Source: Patescibacteria group bacterium (lineage in GTDB: Bacteria > Patescibacteriota > Microgenomatia > UBA1400 > PJMF01). From it: a stretch of 64,000 nucleotides of DNA. A program made the translations under genes and the position numbers. The notes under the pieces are model-generated. The model saw only the letters and a program-made list of their open reading frames with translations. It searched no databases and was not told the DNA's origin. How positions within the stretch are numbered: position 1 is the first letter of the stretch; every line of letters starts with the position of its first letter. Positions 10,496 to 48,842 of this stretch are shown piece by piece. The stretch spans positions 107,714 to 171,713 of the forward strand of contig JBMORP010000002.1 of NCBI GenBank assembly GCA_049322655.1, given 5' to 3'.

Positions 10496-13238
10496 GAACT
10501 ACTCCGGTTGGAATTGGAGCAGTGGTAGGAGTAGGAGAGGGGATTGGAGTTGGTTCTGGATCTTTCCAATCAGCGCCTCCAGCCCCCAACCTAATAGTAT
10601 TACTTTTAGCTTCTTTGCCATCCCTAGAGAAAGCTTTAGCATAAAGCTCGTGTTTACCAGTTGGAAAATTCAGCCAGCCACGGTATTTATAATCATTGAT
10701 GGTTTCTTTCTTCTCACCATCTAGATAAATCTCAATACGATCAATACCTGCATTACTCCCTGCATCAATATGAACTTCGATTTTGTTGTCACCATAAACC
10801 TTTTCATTTTCTGGTTTGCTAATTCGCACAAACACTTCACTAGTATCGCCACAATATTCTGTCGGAATTTTATATCTGGAATCATCCTGACCACCAATCC
10901 AAGCATTGATCGCTTCCTGCCAACGATTTTTACCATCCTGACTAAAAGGGTCTGCCTCTTGCAAAATAATAAACTCTCTTTCATTAAAATCTCCGCCACT
11001 AACTTTAGAAGCGGTGGCTAACTTGCTCTCATCATCGCGACAAACTTTCAGTTTGGCATGAATGGGATCTGGCACAGTTGGTACCGTTCCTTTTAAGAAA
11101 TAGTCAAATTTGGTTGGAAAACCATCATGAGCTGGATAACCAGAAATACTATCTACTTCAACTCGCTCAACATCTTCAGGAACCACCCAGTCTGGCGCAC
11201 CATAACCCATATCCAAGGCTGCAAAAATAATTCTTCGCCAAATTGGAGAGGCACCAGTCACACCTGAAGCCACTCTGGTCATAGAAGTATTATTGTTATT
11301 ACCCACCCAAGTACCAACAATTACTTCCTGACTCCAACCAATCGTCCAGTTATCTTTTTGGTCATTGGTCGTACCAGTTTTAACTGCAATTGGTTTGCCA
11401 GTATTGAGTAGAGAATTGGCTCCAAAAGCTAATAATCTAGCATTATTATCAGCCAAAACATCATTAATTAAAAAAGCCTCACCCTCTGACATCACCCGTT
11501 TGCCTTCGACTTGTTTGTGTTCGAATAACACCCGGCCATCTTTATCCTCAACTTTTAAAATTGCCACTGGTTTAACTTTTAAACCACTATTGGCAAAAGC
11601 ACTATAAGCCGTCACTGTATCTAGTAAATGAACTTCAGCACCACCCAAAGTTACGGCCAAACCAAATCTTTTCATATTGTCATCGGTTGGCTCAAGGGTG
11701 GCAAAACCCATGTCATAAGCTGTCTGCAAGAACTCTTTGACTCCTACAATCGCCACACTTTTAACGGCCGGAATATTAAGAGAACTACCCAAACTGCTCC
11801 TCAAACTAACCGGCCCACGAAACTCTCCATCATAGTTTTTGGGTTTATATTCATCGGCACTTTCGTTGGGTTTAAAGATTGTCTCAGCATCAACAAGCAT
11901 TGAGGCTGGACTATAACCTCTGCGGAACATTGCCAAATAGGTAACTGGCTTAATTGAAGAACCTGGTTGCCTCAAACCATCAGCCGCAACATTAAATTGA
12001 CCATCTATGTCCTGATCAAAAAAGTCTTTACTCCCAACCATACTCAAAATCTCTCCAGTTTTAGGATTCATTACCACTGCAGCCCCGTTAGTAATGTTGT
12101 AGGCTTCCACTCCTTCAACCTCTTCAGTCACAATACTTTGAGCTTGTTGATGCAAAGGTAAGTCAAGCGTCGTTGTGACCTTCAAGCCACCTTTTTCCAC
12201 CAAATCCGGACCAAACATTTCTTCCAGCTGATCTCTCACATAAAACACAAAGTGGGGGGCCTTAATATCTGTTTCTGTGGTATTAAATTCTAGAGAATCC
12301 AACTTAGCTATTTCTTCCTCCATTTGTAATTTAGTAATATTGCCATTTTTTTCCATTGCTCGCAAAACACTTTCTGTTCTAATCTTCCAATAGGGAACAC
12401 CAGCCTCATCTTTTTTGCCAGAAAAAGGGGAATAAACACTAGGACGTTGAGGTAAACCAGCCAGGAAAGCTGCTTCAGTTAAACTCAATTCCGAAACATC
12501 TTTGTTAAAGTAGAGTTCTGCAGCAGTACCGACTCCCCAAGCAGTCCCTCCATAGGGAGCTTCATTTAAATACATCTCCAAAATTTGGTCCTTGGTAAAG
12601 GTCCTTTCAATTTGAATTGATAAAACTAACTCTTTAAATTTTCTAGAAATCGTTCGTTCATTAGTTAAGAGCGCATTCTTCACCAACTGTTGGGTGAGCG
12701 TAGAGCCACCGACCACTCTTTGTCTAAAAACCATATTGTAAGGAATACGAACAACAGTCAATAAATCAAAGCCACCATGTTTATAAAAATCTTTATCTTC
12801 AATCGCCACTGTAGCCTGCTTTAAGTATTCTGGAAGCTGATTTAAAGTAATGGGATTACGTCTTTCATTATCATATAAGTCATAAAGTAACTCACCATCA
12901 CGATCGTAAATCTTGGTACTAAAACCTTCTCGACGAATAACTTCACCTGGTTTAGGCAAATCTTTGGAGTACCAAGCAAATAAACCCAGAAAACCAAAAA
13001 TGCCCACCACCACGCCAATGACAGAGACCCGAGCAATTAATCTCATTCTTTGAGCTTTTAATAGTTCTTGTTGCACTGGAGATAAATGTCTATTTCTTGA
13101 TCTACTTCTAGAAAACTTAATCGTATAAACCTTGATTTTTCTGGCCAATTTTCTATAAATTGATTTGGTTTTATCAGCAATCGCAGTCAAATTAATTTCC
13201 ATGGTGATTGTATTGTAGCAGAAAAACACCCTGACCAA
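10479..13238 (-). CDS. class A penicillin-binding protein (transglycosylase/transpeptidase) with a C-terminal Ig-like extension and a Pro/Thr-rich tail
   Basis: GT51 motif RVVGGSTLTQQLVKN. Transpeptidase SSIKP (SxxK) and KTGTTND (KTG). N-terminal TM anchor. C-terminal PEPTPIPSPTPTTAPIPTG. Confidence 0.85.
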   Translation of the reverse strand: MVRVFFCYNTITMEINLTAIADKTKSIYRKLARKIKVYTIKFSRSRSRNRHLSPVQQELLKAQRMRLIARVSVIGVVVGIFGFLGLFAWYSKDLPKPGEVIRREGFSTKIYDRDGELLYDLYDNERRNPITLNQLPEYLKQATVAIEDKDFYKHGGFDLLTVVRIPYNMVFRQRVVGGSTLTQQLVKNALLTNERTISRKFKELVLSIQIERTFTKDQILEMYLNEAPYGGTAWGVGTAAELYFNKDVSELSLTEAAFLAGLPQRPSVYSPFSGKKDEAGVPYWKIRTESVLRAMEKNGNITKLQMEEEIAKLDSLEFNTTETDIKAPHFVFYVRDQLEEMFGPDLVEKGGLKVTTTLDLPLHQQAQSIVTEEVEGVEAYNITNGAAVVMNPKTGEILSMVGSKDFFDQDIDGQFNVAADGLRQPGSSIKPVTYLAMFRRGYSPASMLVDAETIFKPNESADEYKPKNYDGEFRGPVSLRSSLGSSLNIPAVKSVAIVGVKEFLQTAYDMGFATLEPTDDNMKRFGLAVTLGGAEVHLLDTVTAYSAFANSGLKVKPVAILKVEDKDGRVLFEHKQVEGKRVMSEGEAFLINDVLADNNARLLAFGANSLLNTGKPIAVKTGTTNDQKDNWTIGWSQEVIVGTWVGNNNNTSMTRVASGVTGASPIWRRIIFAALDMGYGAPDWVVPEDVERVEVDSISGYPAHDGFPTKFDYFLKGTVPTVPDPIHAKLKVCRDDESKLATASKVSGGDFNEREFIILQEADPFSQDGKNRWQEAINAWIGGQDDSRYKIPTEYCGDTSEVFVRISKPENEKVYGDNKIEVHIDAGSNAGIDRIEIYLDGEKKETINDYKYRGWLNFPTGKHELYAKAFSRDGKEAKSNTIRLGAGGADWKDPEPTPIPSPTPTTAPIPTGVVPTIEL

Positions 13239-13285
13239 ATCAAGAAGGTGTTATAGAATAACGAATAGTAAGCGGAAAGATATTT

Positions 13286-14479
13286 ATGCTAAAAAAAACT
13301 AGTTTTCCCATTGAAGAGGTCATTTCTAGAGGAGTTGCCGAGATTTTACCCAACAAAGAAACTTTTTTGACCAAACTAAAAACCAATAAAATTAAATTGT
13401 ATCTAGGTATCGATCCTACCGGAGCTAATCTTCACTTGGGCCACTCAGTTGTTTTGAGAAAACTGCAACAATTTGCCAAGTTGGGCCACGAAGTAATTTT
13501 ACTGATTGGTAATGGAACCGTTAAAATTGGTGATCCTACAGGCAGAGATGAATCCAGACCCATCTTAACTGATCAGCAGATTGAAGAAAATTTTGCTACT
13601 TGGAAAACCCAAGCTAGTAAAATCTTAGATTTCAACTTAATTAAAATTCAACGCAATGGTGATTGGTTAGATAAATTGACTTTTCCAGACATGGTTAAGA
13701 TCATGGCCAAAACCACTGTTCAACAACTAATGGAACGAGATATGTTCCAAGAAAGACTAAAAAATGGTCTACCGATTCATGGTCACGAAATTATCTACCC
13801 ATTAATGCAAGGCTACGATTCAGTGGCGATGAATGTTGATTTGGAGATTGGTGGTACCGATCAGACCTTCAACATGATGATGGGCAGAACTCTCCAAAGA
13901 GCATACAACAACAAAGAAAAATGGGTTTTAACTACACCAATTATCAATGGTACTGATGGTAGAAAAATGAGCAAATCATTTAATAATTTTGTCTCTTTAA
14001 GTGAGGCCCCCAATGAGATGTATGGCAAACTAATGAGCGTTGCTGATGAGTTGATCATTGAGTATTTCACTTTACTAACCGATGTTCATCAACAAGAAAT
14101 TGAAGCAATTCAACAAAGAATAGCAAATGGAGACAATCCAATGCAATGGAAAAAACAACTAGCCTGGGAAATTACTGCTTCATATCATTCTGTTGAGGTA
14201 GCTGATCAAGCTCAGACCCACTTTGAAAATACCGTCCAAAATAAACAAGTTGATAGTGCCACTGTAGTGAGTAGAGTAGAGTTAGCTAACAAAACAGCTC
14301 TAGAAATCATGGTAACTTTAACCAAAGAAAGTAATAGTCAATCAAGAAGATTAATTGAACAAGGAGCCTTAACTTTACTACCAAGTGAAGAAAAAATCAC
14401 TGAGCCCAATCAAATCCCAGACCTAACCCTGATTGCTGGACTCAAAATCGGTAAAAAACGTTTTTATAAATTGGTTTGA
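13286..14479 (+). CDS. tyrS: tyrosine--tRNA ligase (class I aaRS; TyrS, less likely TrpS)
   Basis: GIDPTGANLHLGH (HIGH-type), KMSKS at about residue 230, IGDPTGRDESR. Confidence 0.7.
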   Translation: MLKKTSFPIEEVISRGVAEILPNKETFLTKLKTNKIKLYLGIDPTGANLHLGHSVVLRKLQQFAKLGHEVILLIGNGTVKIGDPTGRDESRPILTDQQIEENFATWKTQASKILDFNLIKIQRNGDWLDKLTFPDMVKIMAKTTVQQLMERDMFQERLKNGLPIHGHEIIYPLMQGYDSVAMNVDLEIGGTDQTFNMMMGRTLQRAYNNKEKWVLTTPIINGTDGRKMSKSFNNFVSLSEAPNEMYGKLMSVADELIIEYFTLLTDVHQQEIEAIQQRIANGDNPMQWKKQLAWEITASYHSVEVADQAQTHFENTVQNKQVDSATVVSRVELANKTALEIMVTLTKESNSQSRRLIEQGALTLLPSEEKITEPNQIPDLTLIAGLKIGKKRFYKLV

Positions 14480-14480
14480 G

Positions 14481-14582
14481 ATGACTAAAAAACAACGAGA
14501 AAAACTGATTAAAACTTTTGCTATTCTAGCCATTACTGGTTTGATTGCTAGTAGTTTAATCAGCATGTTTATTATTTTTTAA
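14481..14582 (+). CDS. possible 33-aa single-TM micropeptide
   Basis: MTKKQREKLIKTFAILAITGLIASSLISMFIIF*. It starts 2 nt after the tyrS stop. Weak evidence only. Confidence 0.2.
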   Translation: MTKKQREKLIKTFAILAITGLIASSLISMFIIF

Positions 14583-14601
14583 GTGTTAAACTTAACCTTA
14601 G

Positions 14602-16602
14602 ATGTACCGACTTAATGAATCAATTCATGTTATTAAGGGTGTTGGTCCAGCTTTAGCTAGAGATTTAGAAGCCAAAGAGATCAGACAAATCTCTGATTTG
14701 TTGCTCAAATTACCATTTCGCTATGAAGATAGATCTCAAATAGTGACGATTGATCAATTGACAGTTAATCAGCTGATCACTTTCAAAGCTCATGTCATGA
14801 GCTGTTCAACTTCTTACCGAGGTAGAAGAATCATGACCAGAGCAACTCTTCAAGATTCAACTGGTCGTATTCAAGCGATTTGGTTTAATAATCGTTTTTT
14901 AAAAAACCAACTCAAAAAAGGCAGTGAGTGGTTTTTTTCTGGAAAGATTTCTGAAAGAAAAATCCTAGTCCAAGCAACAATCGAAGCAGTAAAAACAGAC
15001 ACTGTCCATACTGGTCGATTGGTTCCTTTATATTCATCACTAGGTAACAAACTTAAACTTGGTACCTTTAGAAGAATTATCAAGGAAATCACTGATAGAT
15101 TAGCTGATACAACAGACGGTTTGGATACTATTCAGCATCAATTTCCAAAACTTTCTCAAGCATTAAGAATTGTTCATTTCCCTGAACCTAATGATGATGT
15201 CCCTTTAGCTAGAGAAAGATTAGCTTTGGAAGAATTAATTGCTTTAATTAAACATTCTCAGCAAGTTAAACAAGACTGGAAAAATAAACATAGTGCCTTC
15301 GCTATCCAGCTACCAACAACCAGCTACCAACAATGGCTAACTAAAAAATTGCCTTTTGAACTGACAACTGCTCAACAACAAGCCGTCAATGAACTGCTTA
15401 ATGATTTGCAAGCTAACACCCCAATGAATAGATTGTTGATCGGTGATGTTGGTTCTGGAAAAACAGTAGTTGTAGGGATTGCGGCTTTTGCTACTGTCAA
15501 ACTAAATCAACATAATGCTGTTTTAGTAGCACCTACCCAAATCTTGGCCCAACAGCACCTGCAATCACTAACCAAACTTTTTCCAGACTTAAATATTGAA
15601 CTAGTTACCACCAAAGAAGCTAAAAAATTTAAACCTAACTCAAAACCAACCCTATATGTTGGTACCCATGCCGTTATTAACAAACTTACAGAGATCAATC
15701 CTGTTTTGGTGGCTTATGACGAGCAACATCGTTTTGGTGTCAAACAACGAACCACACTACCACTGAAACATGGTACTCCACATACTCTAACTCTATCTGC
15801 TACCCCTATCCCCAGAAGCTTAATGCTGACTTTATTTAGTCATTTAAGCTTAAGCACCATTGATCAAATGCCTCAAGGTAGAATTCCCTCTAAAACATGG
15901 CTTGTCAGCAATACTAAAAAACAAGATTCATTAAACTGGATTGCTGAAACTATTAACAAAACCACTGGCCAAGCCTTAATTGTTTGCCCATTTATTGAGC
16001 CATCTAGCAGTGAAACTTTAGCTGGGGTAACTGCTGCTAAAGAATTATTTACCAACATCAAAAATTTTTACCAGCAAACCGCACCGAAGCTTAAAGTTGG
16101 TTTACTACATGGCAAACTTTCAAGCCAGGTTAAACAACAAGTGATCGATGATCTGTTTCAGCAAAAAATAGATATTTTGATTACCACACCAGTAGTTGAA
16201 GTTGGAGTAGATCTGCCAAAAGCCAATATTATAGTGGTCGAAGCTGCTGAACGTTTTGGTCTGGCTAGTTTGCATCAACTTCGTGGTCGGGTTGGCCGAG
16301 CTGGACAAGAAAGTTATTGCTTGCTATTCACAAACTCAAATTCAGCAGCAACTAAGAAAAGACTAACTATTTTTACTAAAGAAAATAATGGGTTGAAACT
16401 CGCTGAACAAGATTTGCAAAATAGGGGAGCAGGCGATTTATTTGGCTTTCAACAACATGGTTTTGGCAATTTACAGTTCGCTTCATGGACAAACCTAGAA
16501 TTAATTCAAACTGCTCACCAGCTATATAAAAAAGTAGCCTCGATTAATGACTGGCAACCACTTATTAGTTTTAAAAACGATAATTTTCCAACCAATAATT
16601 AA
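14602..16602 (+). CDS. recG: ATP-dependent DNA helicase RecG
   Basis: Walker A GDVGSGKT, DEQHRFGV, LSATPIPRS, QLRGRVGR. Confidence 0.85.
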   Translation: MYRLNESIHVIKGVGPALARDLEAKEIRQISDLLLKLPFRYEDRSQIVTIDQLTVNQLITFKAHVMSCSTSYRGRRIMTRATLQDSTGRIQAIWFNNRFLKNQLKKGSEWFFSGKISERKILVQATIEAVKTDTVHTGRLVPLYSSLGNKLKLGTFRRIIKEITDRLADTTDGLDTIQHQFPKLSQALRIVHFPEPNDDVPLARERLALEELIALIKHSQQVKQDWKNKHSAFAIQLPTTSYQQWLTKKLPFELTTAQQQAVNELLNDLQANTPMNRLLIGDVGSGKTVVVGIAAFATVKLNQHNAVLVAPTQILAQQHLQSLTKLFPDLNIELVTTKEAKKFKPNSKPTLYVGTHAVINKLTEINPVLVAYDEQHRFGVKQRTTLPLKHGTPHTLTLSATPIPRSLMLTLFSHLSLSTIDQMPQGRIPSKTWLVSNTKKQDSLNWIAETINKTTGQALIVCPFIEPSSSETLAGVTAAKELFTNIKNFYQQTAPKLKVGLLHGKLSSQVKQQVIDDLFQQKIDILITTPVVEVGVDLPKANIIVVEAAERFGLASLHQLRGRVGRAGQESYCLLFTNSNSAATKKRLTIFTKENNGLKLAEQDLQNRGAGDLFGFQQHGFGNLQFASWTNLELIQTAHQLYKKVASINDWQPLISFKNDNFPTNN

Positions 16603-16657
16603 ACTAGTCCCTCAAGTTTTCATGCTTGTTTCTTGAGAAAAATACCCGTATCATGGA

Positions 16658-17464
16658 ATGGCGATGAAAAAGTATCTTCACCTTCTAAAAAACAATAATC
16701 AAGGTCAAGTCGGCTTGATTGTCTTGCTTATTATGGTTGTTATTTTGGCTTTAGGCTTATCCTTAGCAGCCAGAACCTCACAACAAGCAGAAATTGCCAT
16801 TCAACAAGAAGATACCACCAGAGTGTTTAATGCTGCAGAATCTGGAGTAGAGGCGGCTTTAGCTAATATCTTTCAAGCTGAATCTGCTGGCACAATTAAT
16901 GACCTATCAGAAGATATTGAATCTCTGGATCTGTCAGGCAGTGACTCCAATGTTAATTACAATATTACGAAAAGTAATATCCTGGAAACCCACCTTAAAC
17001 AAGGAACTAGTACTGAGTTAAAAGTCCCAGCTGCTGGAAGCATTAGTTTTTATTGGGCAACCGAAGCAGAGTGTTTAGAGACGGCCTCATTACTATTATC
17101 TGTCTATGCTAATAATGGCTCAGATGTTACCGCCAAACACTTTGCAGTCGGAGATTGTAGTGGCGCTAGTACCAGAGGTGATAACTTCATCTCTAATGAT
17201 CCTGGACCAAGTCCTTACAAATATGGTTACACCCTGTTTACCTCTGCTGATGATTTATTTGTTAGAGTTAAACCGGTTTACAATGACACCGATATTAAAA
17301 TTGTTGGCTCACCAGCAGTTAGCCAATTTACCATTAACTCTCAGGCTCAAAATACTTTAGCCAGCCAAGAAACCAGAACTTTTGAAGTAAAAAGAACGCT
17401 TTCTACTGCCCCAGCTTTCATGGAATATGCTTTGGTCAGTGGAAGCTCAATTATTAAGAATTAA
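16658..17464 (+). CDS. PilX N-terminal domain-like pilus assembly protein / minor pilin
   Basis: N-terminus QGQVGLIVLLIMVVILALGLSLAARTSQQAEIAIQQEDTTRVFNAAESGVEAAL matches the PilX_N pattern. Immediately upstream of pilMNO. Confidence 0.45.
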   Translation: MAMKKYLHLLKNNNQGQVGLIVLLIMVVILALGLSLAARTSQQAEIAIQQEDTTRVFNAAESGVEAALANIFQAESAGTINDLSEDIESLDLSGSDSNVNYNITKSNILETHLKQGTSTELKVPAAGSISFYWATEAECLETASLLLSVYANNGSDVTAKHFAVGDCSGASTRGDNFISNDPGPSPYKYGYTLFTSADDLFVRVKPVYNDTDIKIVGSPAVSQFTINSQAQNTLASQETRTFEVKRTLSTAPAFMEYALVSGSSIIKN

Positions 17465-17469
17465 AAAAA

Positions 17470-18477
17470 ATGCCTGCCACTGCCATTGATATCGGTACTT
17501 ATGCCGTTAAAGTCGTTACTGCTGATCCTGGTCCACAGCCAAATATTCACCGGGTAGTAGAAGTCGTTAATCCTTTTGGTGTAGCCATCCCCACTGATGA
17601 TCTCCAAGTTGAACAACTAGGTGAGTTAATTAATAACTTGATTTTTGATAATAAACTTACTCATACAGATTTGAGATTAAGTTTGCCAGAAGCAATGGTT
17701 TCTTCCAAAATCATCTCAATTCCACCATTAACTGACTCAGAACTAGCCTCAGCTATCGGCTGGCAAGCTGAACAACATATTCCTATCCAAAAAGAAGATT
17801 TATCCTTGCAATACAAAGTGCTTTATCGCCCAGAAAAAGGCAACTCCAAGACTCCAATGAGAGTACTATTAATCGGCACTAGGAAATCAATTGTTGATAA
17901 ATATGTTAATATGTTTATCGCCATGGGCATTGAGCCCACAGTGCTAGAAACTCAAGTTCTGTCCATTCTCAGAACTCTAGATATTACTGCCCAGGAACCA
18001 CCCACCATGCTCCTGAATTTAGGAGCAACCAACATGGATGTGGCTGTGGTTTTTCAGGGAGAAATTCAGTTTGTCTTCACTCACACTGGAGTTGGCGCTC
18101 TACTTACCAAAACTCTTCAACAAACCCTTGGTTTAGACTTACAACAGGCAGAACAATACAAGCGTTCTTATGGTCTAGATCCCAACCAATTTGAAGGCAA
18201 AGTTAGAAATGCACTTTTACCAATAATTAATGTTTTAATTAGTGAAATTCAGAAAGCTCAACGCTACTTTACTAGCCAATTTCCACAACATACGCTCTCT
18301 CGAGCAGTACTAACTGGAGGCTCATCACAACTTCCGGGCTTAGTAGAGCACCTCTCAGAAACCCTAGGCTCTGAGATTTTATTCGCCGCTCCGTTTGTTA
18401 CTGCTACCGGAGAAGTTCCAACTGAAAATCAACAAAATTTTTCTGTTTGTACTGGGCTATTAATGAGAGAAGTTTAG
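17470..18477 (+). CDS. pilM: type IV pilus assembly protein PilM (actin-like ATPase fold)
   Basis: AIDIGTYAVKVV N-terminal actin-like fold. About 335 aa. Followed by pilN and pilO. Confidence 0.75.
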   Translation: MPATAIDIGTYAVKVVTADPGPQPNIHRVVEVVNPFGVAIPTDDLQVEQLGELINNLIFDNKLTHTDLRLSLPEAMVSSKIISIPPLTDSELASAIGWQAEQHIPIQKEDLSLQYKVLYRPEKGNSKTPMRVLLIGTRKSIVDKYVNMFIAMGIEPTVLETQVLSILRTLDITAQEPPTMLLNLGATNMDVAVVFQGEIQFVFTHTGVGALLTKTLQQTLGLDLQQAEQYKRSYGLDPNQFEGKVRNALLPIINVLISEIQKAQRYFTSQFPQHTLSRAVLTGGSSQLPGLVEHLSETLGSEILFAAPFVTATGEVPTENQQNFSVCTGLLMREV

Positions 18478-44059: not shown

Positions 44060-44935
44060 TTGATCATGCCAAAACCAGAGCTCTTGGTTTCTACTGATAT
44101 TGTTGGTGCTTTCGGCAACCCCAATTGGGCCAAAAAACTTTATCCTTTTTTTGCTCAAAATGAACAACTCTCGGTTGAATTGCTTGCTTGGAAATATCTA
44201 GCGCAATATCCACACTTAGTAGAAAAAAATAAGCTTTCAGTCGTCGGCATTCATGGTCCAACTGGATCACCCAAAGATGCTCCATCTTTAATAGAGAAAA
44301 GTAAAGCCGTTATTATCGACCAACTAACAGCTGATTTAGAGTTAGCTTTGAGTGCCAGACCAGAACTTTTTGACCATAGGAAAAGAAACTATTTCTTGGT
44401 TCATGAACCAGAATTGAGAACAAAAGAAAAAATTAGCTTAATAGCCAAGCAACCAATTCAAACGCATGTGTTAGTGGAAAACGTCCTAGATATTGGTTCT
44501 CTTGATAAAACAGTAGAAAAGATTAAATTACTCCAACACCATGATGTCTCGGCTGGAATTATGTTAGATCTAGTCCATTTACTTAAAGAATTAACCCAAT
44601 CTCTAATCACTTTACAAACTTTGGATGTAAAAGTCTTTGATCAAGTCTGGAGAACAACTTTGGCCAAAATTCAAACAACCATTAATGATTTACCAAAATC
44701 AGGTCTTCATATCCCTATTGGGGAAAATGGTGATTCCTTACCTTTGCACTTAATGACTGATCAGCATTGGCAAGATCTAGCTCAAGTAATTGGCTCCTTA
44801 GGAGAAAATATTCAGTGGTTAGTTTTTGAGAACCAACAAAAAAAAGCTTTAGTTACTCATCCTAAAGACTTTGATCAAATAGCTGAGAGAAACAAGAGAA
44901 TTACCGGCCAAATAGCTGAAAATGGCGTCTTTTAA
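44060..44935 (+). CDS. hypothetical protein
   Basis: ORF only. No recognisable motif. Confidence 0.35.
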   Translation: MIMPKPELLVSTDIVGAFGNPNWAKKLYPFFAQNEQLSVELLAWKYLAQYPHLVEKNKLSVVGIHGPTGSPKDAPSLIEKSKAVIIDQLTADLELALSARPELFDHRKRNYFLVHEPELRTKEKISLIAKQPIQTHVLVENVLDIGSLDKTVEKIKLLQHHDVSAGIMLDLVHLLKELTQSLITLQTLDVKVFDQVWRTTLAKIQTTINDLPKSGLHIPIGENGDSLPLHLMTDQHWQDLAQVIGSLGENIQWLVFENQQKKALVTHPKDFDQIAERNKRITGQIAENGVF

Positions 44936-44958
44936 TTTTTTTAATTTTTTAAACTATG

Positions 44959-45032
44959 TGGACCTGAGGGGGCTCGAACCCCTGACCTTCTGTATGCCAT
45001 ACAGACGCGCTAGCCAACTGCGCCACAGGCCC
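44959..45032 (-). tRNA. tRNA-Ala (anticodon GGC)
   Basis: Acceptor stem with a G3:U70 pair (the Ala identity element). Anticodon loop ATGGCAT. Discriminator A73. T-loop TTCGAGC. Confidence 0.85.
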
Positions 45033-45273
45033 AACTTGAGTGCTTTTAATGTAAGAATTGTACCATTTTTAATGACAAAAGCTATATTTATTGTGAGCTA
45101 CCCAAAAAATTGTAGGTTAGTTTAAATAGGGTAGAGGAGCCAAATCACATTTTGGAGGAGTGAAAACCAATTAAATAAATATATCAAAATATTTTTTAAA
45201 TAAAACAATATGTACAAAAACAAACAAAATATATTTAAATGAATAAAAATACAAACTAAAAGAAACTAGATGA

Positions 45274-46224
45274 TCATTTTTGAAGATCTTTATCCAATGA
45301 ATGATATTCTTCGTGAACCTTTCTTAGTTGGGGCCGGGTTACATGGGTATAAATCTGAGTAGTGGCAATATTTTTGTGACCAAGCATTTCCTGGACATCC
45401 CTCAAGCCTGCTCCACTACTCAATAAATCAGTAGCAAAACTATGACGTATGCCATGTGGAGACAACTTAATCGGTAAGTGAGCTCGGCGACTACACTTAT
45501 CAACCAAGCGCTGAACACTTCTGGTTGTTAAGCGCATTTCCTCACCATCTACAAATAAAGCTTCTTTTCTCCCAGAAAAACGAATAAAAACAGGCCGCCA
45601 TTCATCCTCACGAGTGTCTAACCATCTCTGCAACCAGTTGGCAGCTCTTTCACTCAAAAAAACCACTCTTGGCCTACGACCCTTACCAATCACCCCAAAC
45701 TCACGTCTCTTGAGATCGATTTGATCTCGATTAAGTTTGACCAGCTCGCTAACCCGCAGCCCAGTTGAAAACAAGACCTCAAGAATAACTCTATCTCTTA
45801 AACCTTTTGGCTGAGAGATATCTGGCACAGCCATCAAGCTTTCAATCTTTTCAGCACTAACAAACTTCATTGGCGTAGACTCACCCTTGGGTAACTCAAT
45901 TTTCTCTGGATGAAGCACTTCAATATCATTTTTAACCAACCATTTAAACCAAGAACGTAAAGCAATAATGTGATAACCCTGAGTCTTTTTGGACAGGGTT
46001 CGGCCAACTTCATCAACATATCTGGCCAAAAAGACTCGATATTTTCTCAAAATTTCACGATCAAGTTCTTTTAAATCTCGATGTCCTTTGCCAGTAAACC
46101 AATCATTAAACCTTCTTAAGTAGTGGCCATAATTTCTAATGGTCAAGTTACTAAGGTTTTTTTCTACTTCTAATGATTCCAAAAAATTAAGTAATGCTTT
46201 TTCTGGAACAGTTGATATTGCCAT
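45274..46224 (-). CDS. tyrosine site-specific recombinase, XerC/XerD type
   Basis: C-terminal HGIRHSFATDLL...LGHKNIATTQIYTHV with the catalytic Tyr. N-terminal SAM-like domain. Confidence 0.8.
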   Translation of the reverse strand: MAISTVPEKALLNFLESLEVEKNLSNLTIRNYGHYLRRFNDWFTGKGHRDLKELDREILRKYRVFLARYVDEVGRTLSKKTQGYHIIALRSWFKWLVKNDIEVLHPEKIELPKGESTPMKFVSAEKIESLMAVPDISQPKGLRDRVILEVLFSTGLRVSELVKLNRDQIDLKRREFGVIGKGRRPRVVFLSERAANWLQRWLDTREDEWRPVFIRFSGRKEALFVDGEEMRLTTRSVQRLVDKCSRRAHLPIKLSPHGIRHSFATDLLSSGAGLRDVQEMLGHKNIATTQIYTHVTRPQLRKVHEEYHSLDKDLQK

Positions 46225-46329
46225 AAATCTAGTTATACCGCAAAGCTTTATAAACAGCGAGATAGGTTTGCTAATTTTTAGAATCTTCTTTAGAATAAGG
46301 TTAATAACCTGCCTAGCAATTCACTAAAA

Positions 46330-48070
46330 GTGAAATTTAAAATTTCGCTAATTGGTTGTTTTTTTTAAAAAAATGTATTTTCCCAATAAGTCATAAACTC
46401 AAGATACTATGAGTCATTAGCAGAGAATATCAATTACTGCTAATAAGCATATTTACCAAAATAGCTTGATCTATCAAATATTATTCACTGATATACTCTG
46501 ATGCTCTTTAGCAGAACAACGTATAGTGATTTTACTAAAAAGGATCTTGACTAAACCTTGAGGAGAACTTTAAAGCCAACTAACAATATTTTCCAAAGCT
46601 AATTCTCTAATTAACCAGCAACTAAAATCAACTTAATTTTTAGTCAGAGTTATTTAAATCAGTTTAACTTTTAGGTATCTAAAAATTTATTTAAATTGAA
46701 AAATCATGATTAATGTTAAAAACAATAAATGATTAATTAATTTTTAATTTTTTTTAGATTTTAAAAAAGTAACTTGTTAATAAACCAACAGAAATTAATA
46801 AATTAATTATTAAGAACACTTGTCCAAAAAAAATCCTGCTAAACAATTAAAAACATTTATGTTATTTGCTAATTAGTTTTACCAACCAACTTTAGTTGAT
46901 TTTACTAAACTATGCAAAAACTAAGCCTTTTAAACAGCCCAAAAACGGCTTTTTTTGGCAAAGACGACTAATCCATCATCATCAGAAATTAACTTGATAT
47001 ATCAATTTAAAAATCCTTTTAAGTCCAAAATGTTTTTCTAAAAACCAGCAGAAAAATTTTAAAATAAAAGGTCGTAAATTATCACAAAAATAACCGACAT
47101 AAATTAAACAGCTAATAAATAGAGCAATAAGTAATAAAAATGAATAACTAAAAAAGACTGATATATAAATTAATTATCCATTATTAACAATCTGTAAGAA
47201 AAAATACTAGAAAACTACCAATCAATTTGTTCTGTGGCTTATGTCGTAAAAGTTATATTGTGCGACATAATCTTTGTTGGTGATTTGAACACATAAATTG
47301 GAAAGAGGGAGTGCCTCTCTCACTCCGCTCTGTTTTTATTTTTTTCTTTTAGTTAATGAAATATTTGAAGTTTTTATTACTACTATCTCGTAACCACTAG
47401 TCAAAAAACCATTTTCGACCTTTCAAAAGCTCATTCGGGTTTTATTTTGCTACTCCCCAAAACCAGGCTAAAACCAAATTTTTCTTATTTTTCTGGTAGC
47501 AGGCTATATTTATCACTCTACTCGAGAAAATATGCCTGAACATTTTGTACCCAATTGGGACCATTAGCCTGGAATTATTCTTGCAGAATTATGGCTTTAT
47601 CTGAACAGAAAACTATAACATAGTATATCATCAACCCGAGTGATAACTGCCCAACCTACAACAAGATCCTATAACTTTTTCACGGGAAAGCCTATAGTTT
47701 TCCACAATTTTAATAATATATCAAACTATATCACTCTTCCCTGTTTTAGCCTGGCAATCTACTCCGTTTTCTCTTGGGTCTCTTCCCTATTTTTTTAATA
47801 AATATTTTTTTAAACTTAATAAAATTTTATTTTTACTAACCAAAAATAACTATTTTAAAGCCTGGTAAAGTTCAAATTTAATACTATTCGAAAACTTCTA
47901 AGACTATTACTCTGGTTTTACTCAAGTACTCTCTCCTGCTCTGTTTAAAAATTTTAGCCTGGTATCCAGGCTAAAAAATGCAACCACTAGCTCAAAAACA
48001 ACACTTTGCACACAATCTTAAATCACATTGAGTGTCTTGGAGGATCTAAACTTAAATTATTAGCACTTAA
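46330..48070. other. 1.8-kb AT-rich gene-free region containing a repeated TTAGCCTGG motif, palindromes and an internal plus-strand terminator
   Basis: No ORF longer than 60 aa in any frame. Low GC. See findings. Confidence 0.5.
47304..47345 (+). terminator. strong intrinsic terminator inside the gene-free region
   Basis: AGAGGGAGTG-cctctct-CACTCCgCTCT followed by GTTTTTATTTTTTT. Confidence 0.45.
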
Positions 48071-48074
48071 ACAA

Positions 48075-48842
48075 TTACTTCCATGGTAAGAGAATAAAAA
48101 AGATAAAACCAAGCAAAACCGCCACCAAACTATATTCATTGGCAGTGTTATGAAAAAGTCTCTCCCTAATTTGGCTTTGTAATACCCCCAGACCAATATA
48201 AAACACGCCCATGACGAATAATGCACCATGCCAAGCTGGCAGGGGTAACAGTGATAGTAGTGCCATCAGTTCAACTAAAACAATGGTTAACAAAACAGTC
48301 TTTTCTAAAATTGCTTTGCTCACAAATGGCTCTAACTTAACTGACCATAAACTCATCATCACTAAAGGAAAGTGAACTAGGCCTCCAAGCAGTGCATTGC
48401 TATAAAAAGGCATTCTTAACGAGAAGATGGTGTTGGTCAGAAGCATTGAAGTAAAAAGGGTAAAAAACAAGCCTACAGCATGAGCAGCGTAAATAAGTTG
48501 GATAGTTCTTCCTTTGGCCACCGAATAAATATTACTAGTCAAATATAAAGCGTACATACCTACTCCAAATAAAATCAAAAAGAAAATTCTTGTTAAAAAA
48601 GCCGTTGGCAGCAAGAAATAGAATAAAGCCACCGCTGCGGTATAAATTACCGGAAATGGCAAAATCGTTAACCATTCATGTGGCTGGAGATCATCTTTGA
48701 GTGCCCAAGCCGAAGCGAAATAAGTAACCACCATTAAGCCAGCAATAGCATAATAACGCCAATCGAGGCTGGTGTACTGAACTAAAGATAAACCAATACT
48801 CAAAACAACTGCTGCTAAAACAAATTTTTCTCTTCTTCTCAT
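48075..48842 (-). CDS. hypothetical polytopic membrane protein
   Basis: About 8 hydrophobic helices. No motif recognised. Confidence 0.4.
   Translation of the reverse strand: MRRREKFVLAAVVLSIGLSLVQYTSLDWRYYAIAGLMVVTYFASAWALKDDLQPHEWLTILPFPVIYTAAVALFYFLLPTAFLTRIFFLILFGVGMYALYLTSNIYSVAKGRTIQLIYAAHAVGLFFTLFTSMLLTNTIFSLRMPFYSNALLGGLVHFPLVMMSLWSVKLEPFVSKAILEKTVLLTIVLVELMALLSLLPLPAWHGALFVMGVFYIGLGVLQSQIRERLFHNTANEYSLVAVLLGFIFFILLPWK

Follow-up and report, generated by a model that had tools for sequence, protein, structure and literature searches.

A conserved gene-free locus of Microgenomatia chromosomes carrying a dif-like Xer site and a candidate origin of replication

Introduction

The 64-kb stretch of DNA analysed here (hereafter the window, to which all coordinates refer) is interrupted by 1850 nt in which no gene can be recognised (46225-48074), lying between the start codon of a Xer-type recombinase gene (45274-46224, minus strand) and the stop codon of a DUF5656 gene (48075-48842, minus strand), and this gap raises the question of what such DNA does in the chromosome. 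A first-pass annotation had described the region as gene-free and AT-rich, with tRNA-Ala (GGC) and the recombinase gene on the minus strand to its left, and these descriptions were borne out: the longest ORF within the gap is 52 aa, its GC content is 28.1-28.5% compared to approximately 37% for the window, and the tRNA gene is found at 44958-45032 (minus strand). The same annotation had seen the flanking genes converge on the region and had considered a replication terminus holding Xer/dif, a decayed integrative element and a non-coding RNA locus. The convergence is present, with holB, gyrB, a DHH gene and gyrA on the plus strand to the left and yebC, tsf, rpsB, folD, glyA and dnaB on the minus strand to the right (61% of coding bases on the plus strand left of the gap, 82% on the minus strand right of it), but it is not the sole strand switch in the window, which has several.

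Conservation of the gap and its neighbours

All relatives examined within the class Microgenomatia have the gap, and alignment of the close relatives, which the first-pass annotation had proposed as a check, showed the region in all of them with synteny kept. Among Pacebacteria relatives, the order of xer, a gap of 1.5-2.0 kb and DUF5656 is retained down to a DUF5656 identity of 59%, and class-wide the order of xer, the 28-bp site described below and DUF5656 is found in most loci with enough flank. The DUF5656 gene, encoding a membrane protein (Pfam DUF5656), forms the conserved right-hand bound of the locus; nearly all related genomes have a homologue of it 0.3-1.6 kb to the right of the site, which in two genomes is oriented the other way. 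On the other side, most related genomes whose flank is long enough have a xer homologue 0.4-2.7 kb to the left of the site; in a few the distance reaches 4.3 kb, and in about nine none was found. Apart from the ends of xer and DUF5656, the related gaps contain no recurrent stop-free stretch that would indicate hidden coding, and the extra ORFs in the gaps of two relatives (L008 and L013) have left no remnant in the window. We regard it as an even bet that this non-coding gap serves Microgenomatia (CPR) chromosomes as a conserved control region with two functions, dimer resolution and replication origin.

A 28-bp dif-like site within the gap

The best-conserved non-coding block of the locus is a 28-bp element at 47241-47268 (plus strand) with the 11-6-11 layout of a Xer core site, ATGTCGTAAAA-GTTATA-TTGTGCGACAT, in which the left arm (47241-47251) and the right arm (47258-47268) pair as inverted repeats at 9 of 11 positions around the centre (47252-47257). 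The first-pass annotation had listed the palindrome TTATGTCG-N16-CGACATAA at 47239-47270, which we confirmed in the sequence, while stating that no convincing 28-bp dif was present. The statement is correct for a canonical dif, but the listed palindrome itself, when read as 11-6-11, is the dif-like site. Similarity to canonical dif amounts to 16/28 positions for E. coli and 17/28 for B. subtilis, the window containing over 60 matches that are as good or better, and the best matches to either sequence are scattered through the window, so that canonical dif resemblance in the gap is at chance level. Another motif pointed out earlier, TTATGTTA, is indeed present near 46858; the closest relatives, L001 and L002, lack the stretch that contains it, and it was rejected as a dif candidate.

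The window and every related locus contain a single copy of the element when up to 6 mismatches are allowed, and searching with a 22-nt degenerate core gave one match per genome in at least 119 species. Complete chromosomes that bear the site include CP066686.1, BOKR01000001.1, BOKX01000001.1 and JACKFW010000001.1. In host genomes the central hexamer reads GTATTA, GTTATA, GTAATA or GTGTTA, varying only at the middle two bases, and the consensus of the CPR site is A[C/T]GTCG[C/T]AAAA-N6-TTGTGCGAC[A/G]T. The 28-bp element is very probably a CPR-type dif, that is, the chromosomal Xer recombination site; in the searchable literature we found no earlier dif sequence for CPR/Patescibacteria.

The gene bordering the gap (xer, 45274-46224, minus strand) encodes a 316-aa XerC/D-like tyrosine recombinase with a Pfam Phage_integrase domain (1e-42) and a SAM-like N-domain, in whose translation the catalytic residues R-K-H-R-H-Y can be read. 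Its NCBIfam scores were 249 bits for XerC and 246 bits for XerD, both under the equivalog cut-offs, compared to 113 bits against a cut-off of 267 for the XerS model, and its nearest solved structure was E. coli XerD (4.5e-39), with a XerH chain at E = 2e-12. No second Xer homologue was found within the 64-kb window, and the product of xer is the presumed enzyme for the 28-bp site 1 kb away. Upstream of the gene, a promoter scan identified a promoter-like site at 46404-46443 on the minus strand (-35 TTGATA at 46433-46428, -10 TAGTAT at 46409-46404), overlapped by the inverted repeat TTAGCAG-N13-CTGCTAA (46417-46443). This block is conserved in all Pacebacteria relatives, with the repeat compensated to TTGGCAG/CTGCCAA in L004 and extended to AGCAGAG/CTCTGCT in L010, and the repeat is probably an operator of xer. 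The several promoter-like motifs reported for the region as a whole do exist (9 matches), but they are not above the shuffled expectation of 12.1.

Evidence for recombination at the site

Sequences outside the lineage of the window indicate that the site recombines. The site arms were found unchanged in 66 viral contigs together with 28 different central hexamers, and none of these contigs carries a close xer homologue, one of them having a distant, 25%-identical tyrosine recombinase. Among five loci (L192, L202, L194, L198 and L200) each of the four possible pairings of a left with a right flank is seen, with the breakpoint at the site. Furthermore, TM7 (Saccharibacteria) strains, whose site arms are identical to those of the 28-bp site, share one backbone in which the site is empty in L204 and L205 and occupied in L203 and L206-L208 by a 5.3-6 kb inovirus-like prophage. 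These prophages are inserted exactly at the site; their genes include those for an inovirus-type Rep (REP_ORF2-G2P) and a Zot-like ATPase, and an integrase gene is absent. When the site is occupied, attL is the full site and attR consists of a foreign arm, GATATA and the host right arm, while the prophage attP has the central hexamer of the host site and one good arm. The site is thus demonstrated to be the crossover point of prophage integration in TM7. This evidence comes from TM7 and the viral contigs; in the lineage of the window itself neither prophage-occupied nor flank-reassorted alleles were found, and Xer would presumably act on the site there in the same manner.

In the mechanism we propose, the XerC/D-like recombinase encoded next to the site would occupy the 11-bp arms as two molecules and carry out strand exchange over the 6-bp centre, by which chromosome dimers would be resolved, and integrase-less phages carrying a look-alike site would hijack the same Xer reaction. 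The dif family represented by the 28-bp site would then be common to at least two CPR classes and be exploited by integrase-less phages.

The site shares with the XerCD/dif systems of E. coli and B. subtilis a 28-bp core, 11-bp imperfect inverted arms, a 6-bp centre, a single copy and a non-coding location, and the recombinase is nearest to XerD/XerC. It differs from them in a sequence that is not recognisably related to canonical dif, in having one site-linked recombinase gene where they have two unlinked genes, and in the lack of a GC-skew switch. Single-recombinase Xer systems keep dif next to the recombinase gene (PMC5357621), and as in XerS/difSL of streptococci and XerH/difH of Helicobacter and Campylobacter, the recombinase gene and the site studied here form one genetic module, with a left arm that ends in AAAA like the difSL and difH arms. 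In contrast to these systems, the enzyme is of the 316-aa XerC/D-like type rather than the XerS/XerH type of approximately 355 aa, and gene and site are separated by 0.4-2.7 kb across a hypervariable spacer instead of being immediately adjacent.

Integrase-less filamentous phages of Vibrio (CTXphi, VGJphi and TLCphi) are known as IMEX to integrate at dif. The TM7 prophages resemble them in having an inovirus-type Rep and a Zot-like ATPase, in lacking an integrase and in being located exactly at the site, whereas the hosts are CPR bacteria (TM7, not the lineage of the window) and the site family is new. If our reading is correct, a defined dif sequence for CPR/Patescibacteria would provide a fixed landmark for orienting and checking assemblies and would allow prophages that integrate via host Xer to be recognised. 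The use of the site by integrase-less inovirus-like phages of human-associated TM7 would likewise be a testable phage-host interaction, TM7 strains being culturable and genetically manipulable.

A conserved module to the right of the site

A second conserved part of the gap lies 430-620 nt right of the site and consists of a DnaA box, repeats with 10-bp spacing, a C-rich cluster and an AT-rich tract. The DnaA-box region (47667-47706, plus strand) contains TCCTATAAC (47667-47675), TTTTTCACG (47676-47684), GCCTATAGT (47690-47698) and TTTTCCACA (47698-47706), of which TTTTCCACA and the weaker TTTTTCACG are the boxes of the window. TTTTCCACA fits TTWTNCACA and is the sole match to this pattern in the gap, the whole window containing 3 matches compared to 10 expected. 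Across species, the perfect box TTATCCACA was found 72 times between +100 and +900 from the site, always on the plus strand, and 4 times in the other approximately 480 kb. Each species has one perfect or near-perfect DnaA box in fixed orientation accompanied by one or two weaker TTTTCACG-type boxes; they do not form a clear cluster, which speaks against an origin.

The boxes are followed by the iteron-like direct repeats TATATCAAAC and TATATCAC with 10-bp spacing (47715-47734, plus strand), which recur across species: ACTATATC/CTATATCA was found in 89 of 105 species at approximately +430 from the site, in 2-4 phased copies. Between these repeats and the AT-rich tract lies a C/T-rich cluster, CTCTTCCCTG ... 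CTCTTCCCTAT (47735-47788, plus strand), with CTCTTCCC recurrent at approximately +489 in 31 species and a dip of the A+T content to 0.56 at the offset of the cluster (89 species). The tract itself, read from the sequence, comprises 71 nt of approximately 92% A+T (47789-47859), and the mean of 89 species shows a corresponding A+T bump of 0.69, compared to approximately 0.61, at +60 to +120 from the repeats. We consider the tract a candidate DNA-unwinding element on account of its composition.

Six copies of AGCCTGG/CCAGGCT are spread over 47463-47972 (starting at 47463 on the minus strand, at 47566, 47748, 47859 and 47956 on the plus strand, and at 47966 on the minus strand), a density of 3.2 per kb in the gap compared to 0.18 per kb elsewhere in the window, and TAGCCTGG occurs in 12 copies where 1.3 are expected. 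In more than 100 species GCCTGG/CCAGGC is enriched 5-15 times from -400 to +800 of the site, and the AGCCTGG copies have the appearance of a binding-site-like repeated motif of the module. A TATAAT-containing motif, GTCCTATAAT, adjoins the DnaA box in either orientation and in 1-3 copies. The conserved blocks of the locus are in general short motifs whose order and orientation differ between lineages, and both the 28-bp site and the module are present in Collierbacteria loci.

These parts, namely the DnaA box TTTTCCACA/TTATCCACA, the weaker TTTTCACG box, the 10-bp-phased ATATCAAAC repeats, the C-rich cluster and the 71-nt AT tract, could together make up an origin, and from their arrangement we give the right-hand module roughly equal chances of being oriC or something else. 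An origin next to dnaA or dnaN is common but not universal among bacteria; using an approximate B. subtilis DnaA query, tblastn gave no match to dnaA within 8-64 kb of the site in the window and approximately 130 loci.

Skew and the direction of replication

The cumulative GC skew falls throughout the window and has no extremum, and the strand-corrected GC3 skew of the plus strand is negative on both sides of the gap, from -47 kb to +17 kb. The same sign was observed in related species, in 52 of 58 on the left and in 61 of 65 on the right, while one of the 12 species measurable on both sides was weakly terminus-like. In a 747-kb relative, a sample from -57 to -77 kb kept the sign of the skew, although weaker. 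Hence, there is no GC-skew switch at the site or at the module in the window or in most of the related species, and this absence fits a dif only where origin and terminus share one place or where the system does not depend on the terminus. Since unidirectional replication is not expected to produce a skew switch, the skew test does not discriminate that case. At the TM7 site, taken as a comparison for a terminus, the skew changes from +0.27 to +0.06 with no clean change of sign.

Complete Microgenomates genomes have been reported to show a monotonic cumulative GC skew, with a normal V-shaped skew in one family, and it was proposed that ori and ter are adjacent or that theta replication is unidirectional; no locus, origin, dif or Xer was named (Kadnikov et al. 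2020, PMC7143001). Our locus belongs to the same class and likewise has one strand that is C-rich whatever the gene orientation, and it adds to that report (PMC7143001) a concrete candidate for the ori/ter junction. Taken together, the missing composition switch at the locus and the monotonic skew in related complete genomes suggest that origin and terminus would coincide here, with replication running one way round the circle and ending next to dif. One-way replication is possible but falls somewhat short of probable. We tentatively suggest, with the same reserve, that Microgenomatia may replicate their sole chromosome in one direction from a DnaA-box origin approximately 450 bp from dif, so that the origin would also be the terminus locus. 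As the genes on both sides point into the gap, a single fork would run head-on to one flank in either direction, which speaks against this reading.

If true, the coincidence of origin and terminus at a xer-dif-DnaA-box locus would be the cause of the monotonic Microgenomates skew (PMC7143001). A parallel is found in the unidirectional chromids of Pseudoalteromonas, where dif2 lies beside ori2 and the skew has one polarity (PMC7858055). Both systems would combine a single skew polarity with a dif near the origin, whereas the chromids are plasmid-derived secondary replicons with RepA-type origins and a dif 4-27 kb away (PMC7858055), and the replicon studied here would be the sole chromosome, with a candidate DnaA-box module approximately 450 bp from dif. 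To our knowledge, unidirectional replication has so far been shown for plasmids and plasmid-derived chromids, and it would be out of the ordinary for a sole cellular chromosome.

The alternative that survives best accepts the 28-bp site as Xer/dif but places it in the middle of a replichore of an ordinary bidirectional chromosome, in which case the right-hand module would not be an origin; it would instead hold accessory or regulatory recombination sequences, as in cer/psi, or a DnaA-controlled promoter of a small non-coding or antisense transcript. The uniform sign of the skew on both sides is what is expected inside a replichore, the single strong DnaA box and the lack of a dnaA match nearby with our approximate query are in keeping with it, and the TATAAT-containing GTCCTATAAT beside the box would suit a promoter. 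In addition, a TTTTCCACA-type box is located approximately 250 nt from the TM7 site; as TM7 also has a DnaA box near its site, a lone box beside dif is not specific. Archaeal XerA/dif, moreover, functions independently of FtsK and outside the terminus (PMC5357621). As a lead only, the locus can be compared to plasmid cer/psi, where conserved protein-binding sequence extends for a few hundred bp to one side of the Xer core, but the locus is chromosomal, and a DnaA box and an AT-rich tract are among its flank motifs; no PepA-, ArgR- or ArcA-type sites were identified there. However, the occurrence of GTCCTATAAT in both orientations and in 1-3 copies makes it ill-suited to be a promoter, the fixed order of phased repeats, C-rich cluster and AT tract is left without explanation, and the published monotonic skew of the class is left without an origin-terminus locus. 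As far as we know, bacterial dif is also found at the terminus in nearly all studied cases, and altogether we consider a mid-replichore position rather unlikely.

A conventional terminus of a bidirectional chromosome, with dif and xer where the forks meet, is very improbable. The converging genes, the presence of xer and a dif-like site, and a raw GC skew that is positive at 38-45 kb and negative from 45 kb all agree with it, but this local bump arises because the raw skew follows gene orientation, and the GC3 skew is negative on both sides once gene strand is corrected. The first-pass annotation was right in expecting a Xer site here; its conventional terminus failed the GC-skew check that it had itself proposed, the cumulative skew falling through the whole window where an extremum was looked for.

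Hairpins, the tRNA gene and the spacer

The gap contains a few hairpins, and a plus-strand terminator with no upstream ORF had been reported at 47304-47345. The terminator scan indeed recovered a terminator-like hairpin, GGAGTG-N7-CACTCC followed by a T-run (47308-47345, plus strand; stem 47308-47326), but it is lineage-specific: L004 and L006 have a hairpin of other sequence at the same position, and a hairpin after the site was found in 19 of 115 species compared to 9-18 of 107 in control flanks. We therefore dropped this terminator as a general feature, for want of conservation in the class. A second inverted repeat, TTTTAGCCTGG-N3-CCAGGCTAAAA (47952-47976), comprises two AGCCTGG motifs, was identified in the minus-strand terminator scan 100 nt downstream of the DUF5656 stop codon, has folding z-scores of -3.6 and -4.1, and is conserved with varying loops in L004, L006 and L008; its position and folding make it the probable terminator of the yebC-DUF5656 operon.

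These observations bear on the proposal that the gap is a non-coding RNA locus, either with a transcript ending at the 47308-47345 hairpin or with a large structured RNA in the conserved right half. The hairpin without an upstream ORF, TTCGGGTTTT-type terminator halves at approximately +212 in 47 species and local hairpins with z-scores of -3 to -4 would fit such a locus, but in the sliding-window folding the excess structure is limited to three short hairpins and nowhere extends to a large RNA, and Rfam gave no match in the gap at the gathering score and no meaningful one at E up to 10. The conserved blocks being short motifs of shifting order and orientation also speaks against an RNA, as does the poor conservation of the hairpin after the site. 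The palindrome of the site, whose outer pairs are non-complementary in approximately 40% of species, is for that reason not a maintained stem, and its reading as an RNA hairpin was rejected. We consider a non-coding RNA locus very improbable.

The decayed integrative element at tRNA-Ala, in which integrase and tRNA target would remain after erosion of the cargo, is most improbable. A tyrosine recombinase gene next to a tRNA gene, adjoining AT-rich non-coding DNA and a spacer that is hypervariable between strains agree with it, but the region is present in all close relatives, recombinase, site, gap and DUF5656 are syntenic and vertically conserved class-wide with recombinase identity dropping in step with that of the neighbour genes, tRNA adjacency to the xer locus is confined to the Pacebacteria subgroup, and no 18-mer copy of the tRNA (at most 2 mismatches) that could serve as an att repeat was found within 40-52 kb.

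The spacer itself extends from the xer promoter to the site (46450-47230), is AT-rich and contains no ORFs. We found no convincing half-site relics of old insertions within it, and a sharp divergence boundary at the site was not recovered in strain pairs beyond that of the window and L001, most of which are identical or too distant; in intermediate strain pairs the variable zone begins 200-300 nt left of the site and not at the site. The spacer has 56-76% identity with many indels to L001 and L002, compared to a background identity of 98-99% for these strains, and it is the fastest-evolving stretch in other species pairs too.

The gene-free gap and its recombinase

The AT-rich, gene-free region singled out in the first-pass annotation was found to extend over 1850 nt (46225-48074), from the start codon of the xer recombinase gene (45274-46224, minus strand) to the stop codon of a DUF5656 membrane-protein gene (48075-48842, minus strand), in a Pacebacteria-type member of the CPR class Microgenomatia. 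The GC content of the gap is 28% compared to approximately 37% in the window, its longest ORF is 52 aa, and a search for hidden coding potential within it found none. Its surroundings were also as described, with tRNA-Ala(GGC) and the recombinase at the left, holB-gyrB-DHH-gyrA on the plus strand among the left genes, and yebC, tsf, rpsB, folD, glyA and dnaB on the minus strand to the right, as were a palindrome at 47239-47270 and a plus-strand hairpin with T-run at 47308-47345. The promoter-like motifs reported for the gap had matches no more frequent than in shuffled sequence.

The recombinase is a full-length XerC/D-like protein with the catalytic residues present, scoring 249 bits with the XerC model and 246 bits with the XerD model (both below the equivalog cut-offs), and the solved structure nearest to it is that of E. 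coli XerD. A promoter-like site of xer (46404-46443, minus strand) is a block conserved among Pacebacteria relatives, and its -35 element sits within the inverted repeat TTAGCAG-N13-CTGCTAA (46417-46443), of which a compensated variant occurs in one relative (L004) and an extended variant in another (L010). This repeat is probably an operator, resembling in outline the CIRCE operator (TTAGCACTC-N9-GAGTGCTAA).

A putative dif-type site

Aligning seven species showed conservation within the gap to be highest in the block 47241-47268, ATGTCGTAAAA-GTTATA-TTGTGCGACAT, which consists of two 11-bp imperfect inverted repeats flanking a 6-bp centre and is single-copy in the window and in each locus when six mismatches are allowed. 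Scanning one genome per species, the 22-nt core CGYAAAAGTNNTATTGTGCGAC was found in at least 119 genomes with one match apiece, and among the matches listed, the informatively named ones belong to Microgenomatia (Pace-, Woese-, Levy-, Gottesman-, Curtiss- and Collierbacteria). The site has the consensus tA[C/T]GTCG[T/C]AAAA-GT[A/T][T/A]TA-TTGTGCGAC[A/G]TAAt, in which the central hexamer varies at the two middle bases only (GTATTA 68, GTTATA 38, GTAATA 12, GTGTTA 4). The outermost palindromic pair is non-complementary in approximately 40% of species, which argues for two protein-bound half-sites and not a maintained stem. Where the flank is long enough, most loci have a xer homolog on the minus strand 0.4-2.7 kb left of the site and a DUF5656 homolog 0.3-1.6 kb right of it; a xer homolog was not found in about nine loci, and in a few it is up to 4.3 kb away. 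Keeping the gene beside its site is a described hallmark of single-recombinase Xer systems (PMC5357621).

When the arms of the site were searched for with the central hexamer unconstrained, they matched 66 viral contigs of IMG/VR (30-49% GC) with unrelated flanks and 28 different central hexamers (GATATA 21, TGTATA 8, and others). Many of these contigs are clearly phage, encoding virion structural, terminase-like and portal-like proteins, and a subset of small elements encodes an inovirus-type Rep and a Zot-like ATPase. No close xer or DUF5656 homolog was found near the site in the 66 contigs; one of them (L140) has a distant tyrosine recombinase of 25% identity. In a group with TM7/Saccharibacteria as host (L192, L202, L194, L198 and L200), the 400-nt left and right flanks are seen in each of the four possible pairings, breaking at the site, with L202 and L194 agreeing at 0.90 on the left and 0.45 on the right, and L202 and L200 at 0.27 and 0.84, respectively. 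Several viral contigs carry a DnaA-box-like 9-mer within 200-300 nt of the site, and one (L137) additionally reproduces a 9-nt stretch of the left flank in its Levybacteria-type form (TGCCTGAGT).

In TM7 strains that share one backbone, the site lies between genes for an FtsQ-like and a DUF3048 protein, around locus coordinates 11180-18000. It is empty in two of these strains (L204 and L205), and in four others (L203 and L206-L208) a prophage of 5.3-6 kb is inserted exactly at it. The prophage is inovirus-like, with REP_ORF2-G2P and a Zot-like ATPase and without an integrase; at least two prophage types use this site, and the strains are human-associated. Junction mapping showed that in attL the left arm of the host is followed by GATATA, a right arm and then phage DNA, and that in attR GATATA is preceded by an unrelated left arm and followed by the right arm of the host and then host DNA, the same structure as in elements that integrate at dif through the Xer of their host. 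Between TM7 and the window, the arms agree at 20 of 22 positions. Because of this junction structure and arm identity, we file the element at 47241-47268 as a putative dif-type Xer site. Two defining features of a dif site are absent, as the element resembles canonical dif no better than chance and does not lie at a skew switch. The system would work like Xer/dif with IMEX-type exploitation.

Strand composition and a candidate origin

We analyzed the GC skew at third codon positions (GC3) of ORFs pooled from over 100 species, with the site setting the orientation of each, which separates the gene strand from the chromosome strand. The coding-strand GC3 skew was -0.15 for plus-strand and +0.11 for minus-strand genes left of the site, and -0.21 and +0.17 right of it, indicating that the plus strand is C-rich on either side. 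It was C-rich in every window segment from -47 kb to +17 kb of the site and in most species (left 52/58, right 61/65); among 12 species with both sides measurable, none was origin-like and one was weakly terminus-like. The sign was kept, more weakly, 57-77 kb further left in a 747-kb relative. This uniformity agrees with the near-linear cumulative skew over complete Microgenomates chromosomes (Ch65, Collierbacterium, Beckwithbacterium) reported by Kadnikov et al. (2020), who suggested adjacent positions for origin and terminus, or unidirectional replication, with no locus identified (PMC7143001).

Recurrent 8-mers right of the site revealed a class-wide module at about +200 to +500, comprising TTCGGGTT (a terminator-like half), two copies of (C/T)GTGAAAA or TTTTCACG in opposite orientation, AGTTATCCACA, one to three copies of GTCCTATAAT in either orientation, two to four 10-bp-phased copies of ATATCAAAC, and CTCTTCCC; the phased-repeat motif CTATATCA was found in 89 of 105 species. 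Perfect DnaA boxes (TTATCCACA) numbered 72 at +100 to +900, all on the plus strand, against 4 in the other ~480 kb examined. In the window, the module includes TCCTATAAC at 47667, TTTTTCACG at 47676, TTTTCCACA at 47698-47706, phased repeats at 47715-47734 followed by a C/T-rich cluster, and a 71-nt tract of 92% A+T at 47789-47859, at whose offset the 89-species average has an A+T bump. AGCCTGG/CCAGGCT is present in six copies in the right half of the window's gap, and across species GCCTGG/CCAGGC shows a 5-15 fold enrichment between positions -400 and +800 relative to the site. Boxes followed by phased repeats, a GC-rich cluster and an AT tract, in that order, would be expected of an origin. 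An inverted repeat at 47952-47976 is the likely terminator of the yebC-DUF5656 operon. Of two further motifs, TAGCCTGG occurs 12 times in the window compared to 1.3 expected (5 inside the gap), and the relaxed DnaA box TTWTNCACA 3 times compared to ~10 expected.

In nearly all bacteria dif marks the terminus, no skew inversion is seen between the site and the nearest genes on either side, and the skew of the class is monotonic in the literature. On these three grounds, we give even chances to the module being oriC and slightly less than even chances to replication being unidirectional around the circle. Replication would then start at the module and proceed one way round the chromosome. The known precedent is the unidirectional Pseudoalteromonas chromids, with dif2 4-27 kb from ori2 (PMC7858055). 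Counting against oriC, the module has one strong DnaA box and not a cluster, no dnaA was found within reach in any locus with an approximate B. subtilis DnaA query, and in TM7, too, a single TTTTCCACA-type box lies ~250 nt away from the site; moreover, the genes of both flanks point into the gap, which also speaks against one-way replication. The main alternative, rather unlikely in our judgment, is a dif located mid-replichore and flanked by a non-origin module of accessory sequences or a DnaA-controlled promoter.

From the converging genes, the first-pass annotation had proposed a replication terminus. Cumulative GC skew falls across the entire window without an extremum, a small bump in it tracks gene orientation, and several more strand switches occur elsewhere in the window. 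By GC skew, the measure on which that proposal was itself to be judged, the uniform sign refutes it, and we regard a classical terminus as improbable. The searched literature yielded no account of an origin, a dif site or a Xer target in CPR bacteria. The features that set the system apart are a new site sequence family common to at least two CPR classes, its linkage to a XerC/D-like gene, the absence of a skew switch, and a candidate origin ~450 bp from the site.

Conservation of the locus

The near-identical relatives L001 and L002 retain the same gap, and the order of xer, a 1.5-2.0 kb non-coding gap and DUF5656 is kept at DUF5656 identities of 85, 81, 73, 64 and ~60%. Judged by these relatives, the gap is conserved and not decaying. 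The suggestion of an ncRNA locus, here producing small transcripts, is very improbable; a large or known ncRNA is without support, and the plus-strand hairpin is real, yet lineage-specific. A decayed integrative element at tRNA-Ala, also suggested, can practically be dismissed, since the synteny of the locus is class-wide, the tRNA is adjacent in a subgroup only and no att repeats of the tRNA were found between 40 and 52 kb of the window.

Compared to L001, the flanking genes are 98-99% identical and 47233-48074 is ~97% identical, whereas 46400-47230 is 56-76% identical with many indels. The divergence of this hypervariable spacer (46450-47230) far exceeds the 1-2% background, and the zone is the fastest-evolving stretch in other species pairs too. 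Half-site scars were looked for in the spacer and none were found. The sequence AGGTCGTAAATTATCAC (47069-47085), whose GTCGTAAAT core is kept in L001, is like the left arm of the site with 6 mismatches in 17 and might be a relic arm or chance. The motif (T)AGCC(T/C)CAAAAACGGCTTTTT, at 46930-46957 and in ~25 other species at about -200 to -280, combines a 4-bp stem with a plus-strand T-run to the left of the site, and could be a weak terminator or binding site.

Two relatives have an extra ORF directly after DUF5656 inside the gap (L008, 10819-11340, 173 aa; L013, 10807-11562, 251 aa), of which no remnant was found in the window. Over 44600-45800, which takes in the 3' half of xer together with the flank of tRNA-Ala, identity to L001 and L002 is only 87-92%, compared to 98-99% elsewhere, which suggests a separately imported mosaic segment. 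Finally, GyrB of the 747-kb relative (L010/L011, 18937-20768) is 1057 aa long and contains an intein (Intein_splicing domain), compared to 672 aa for GyrB of the window.
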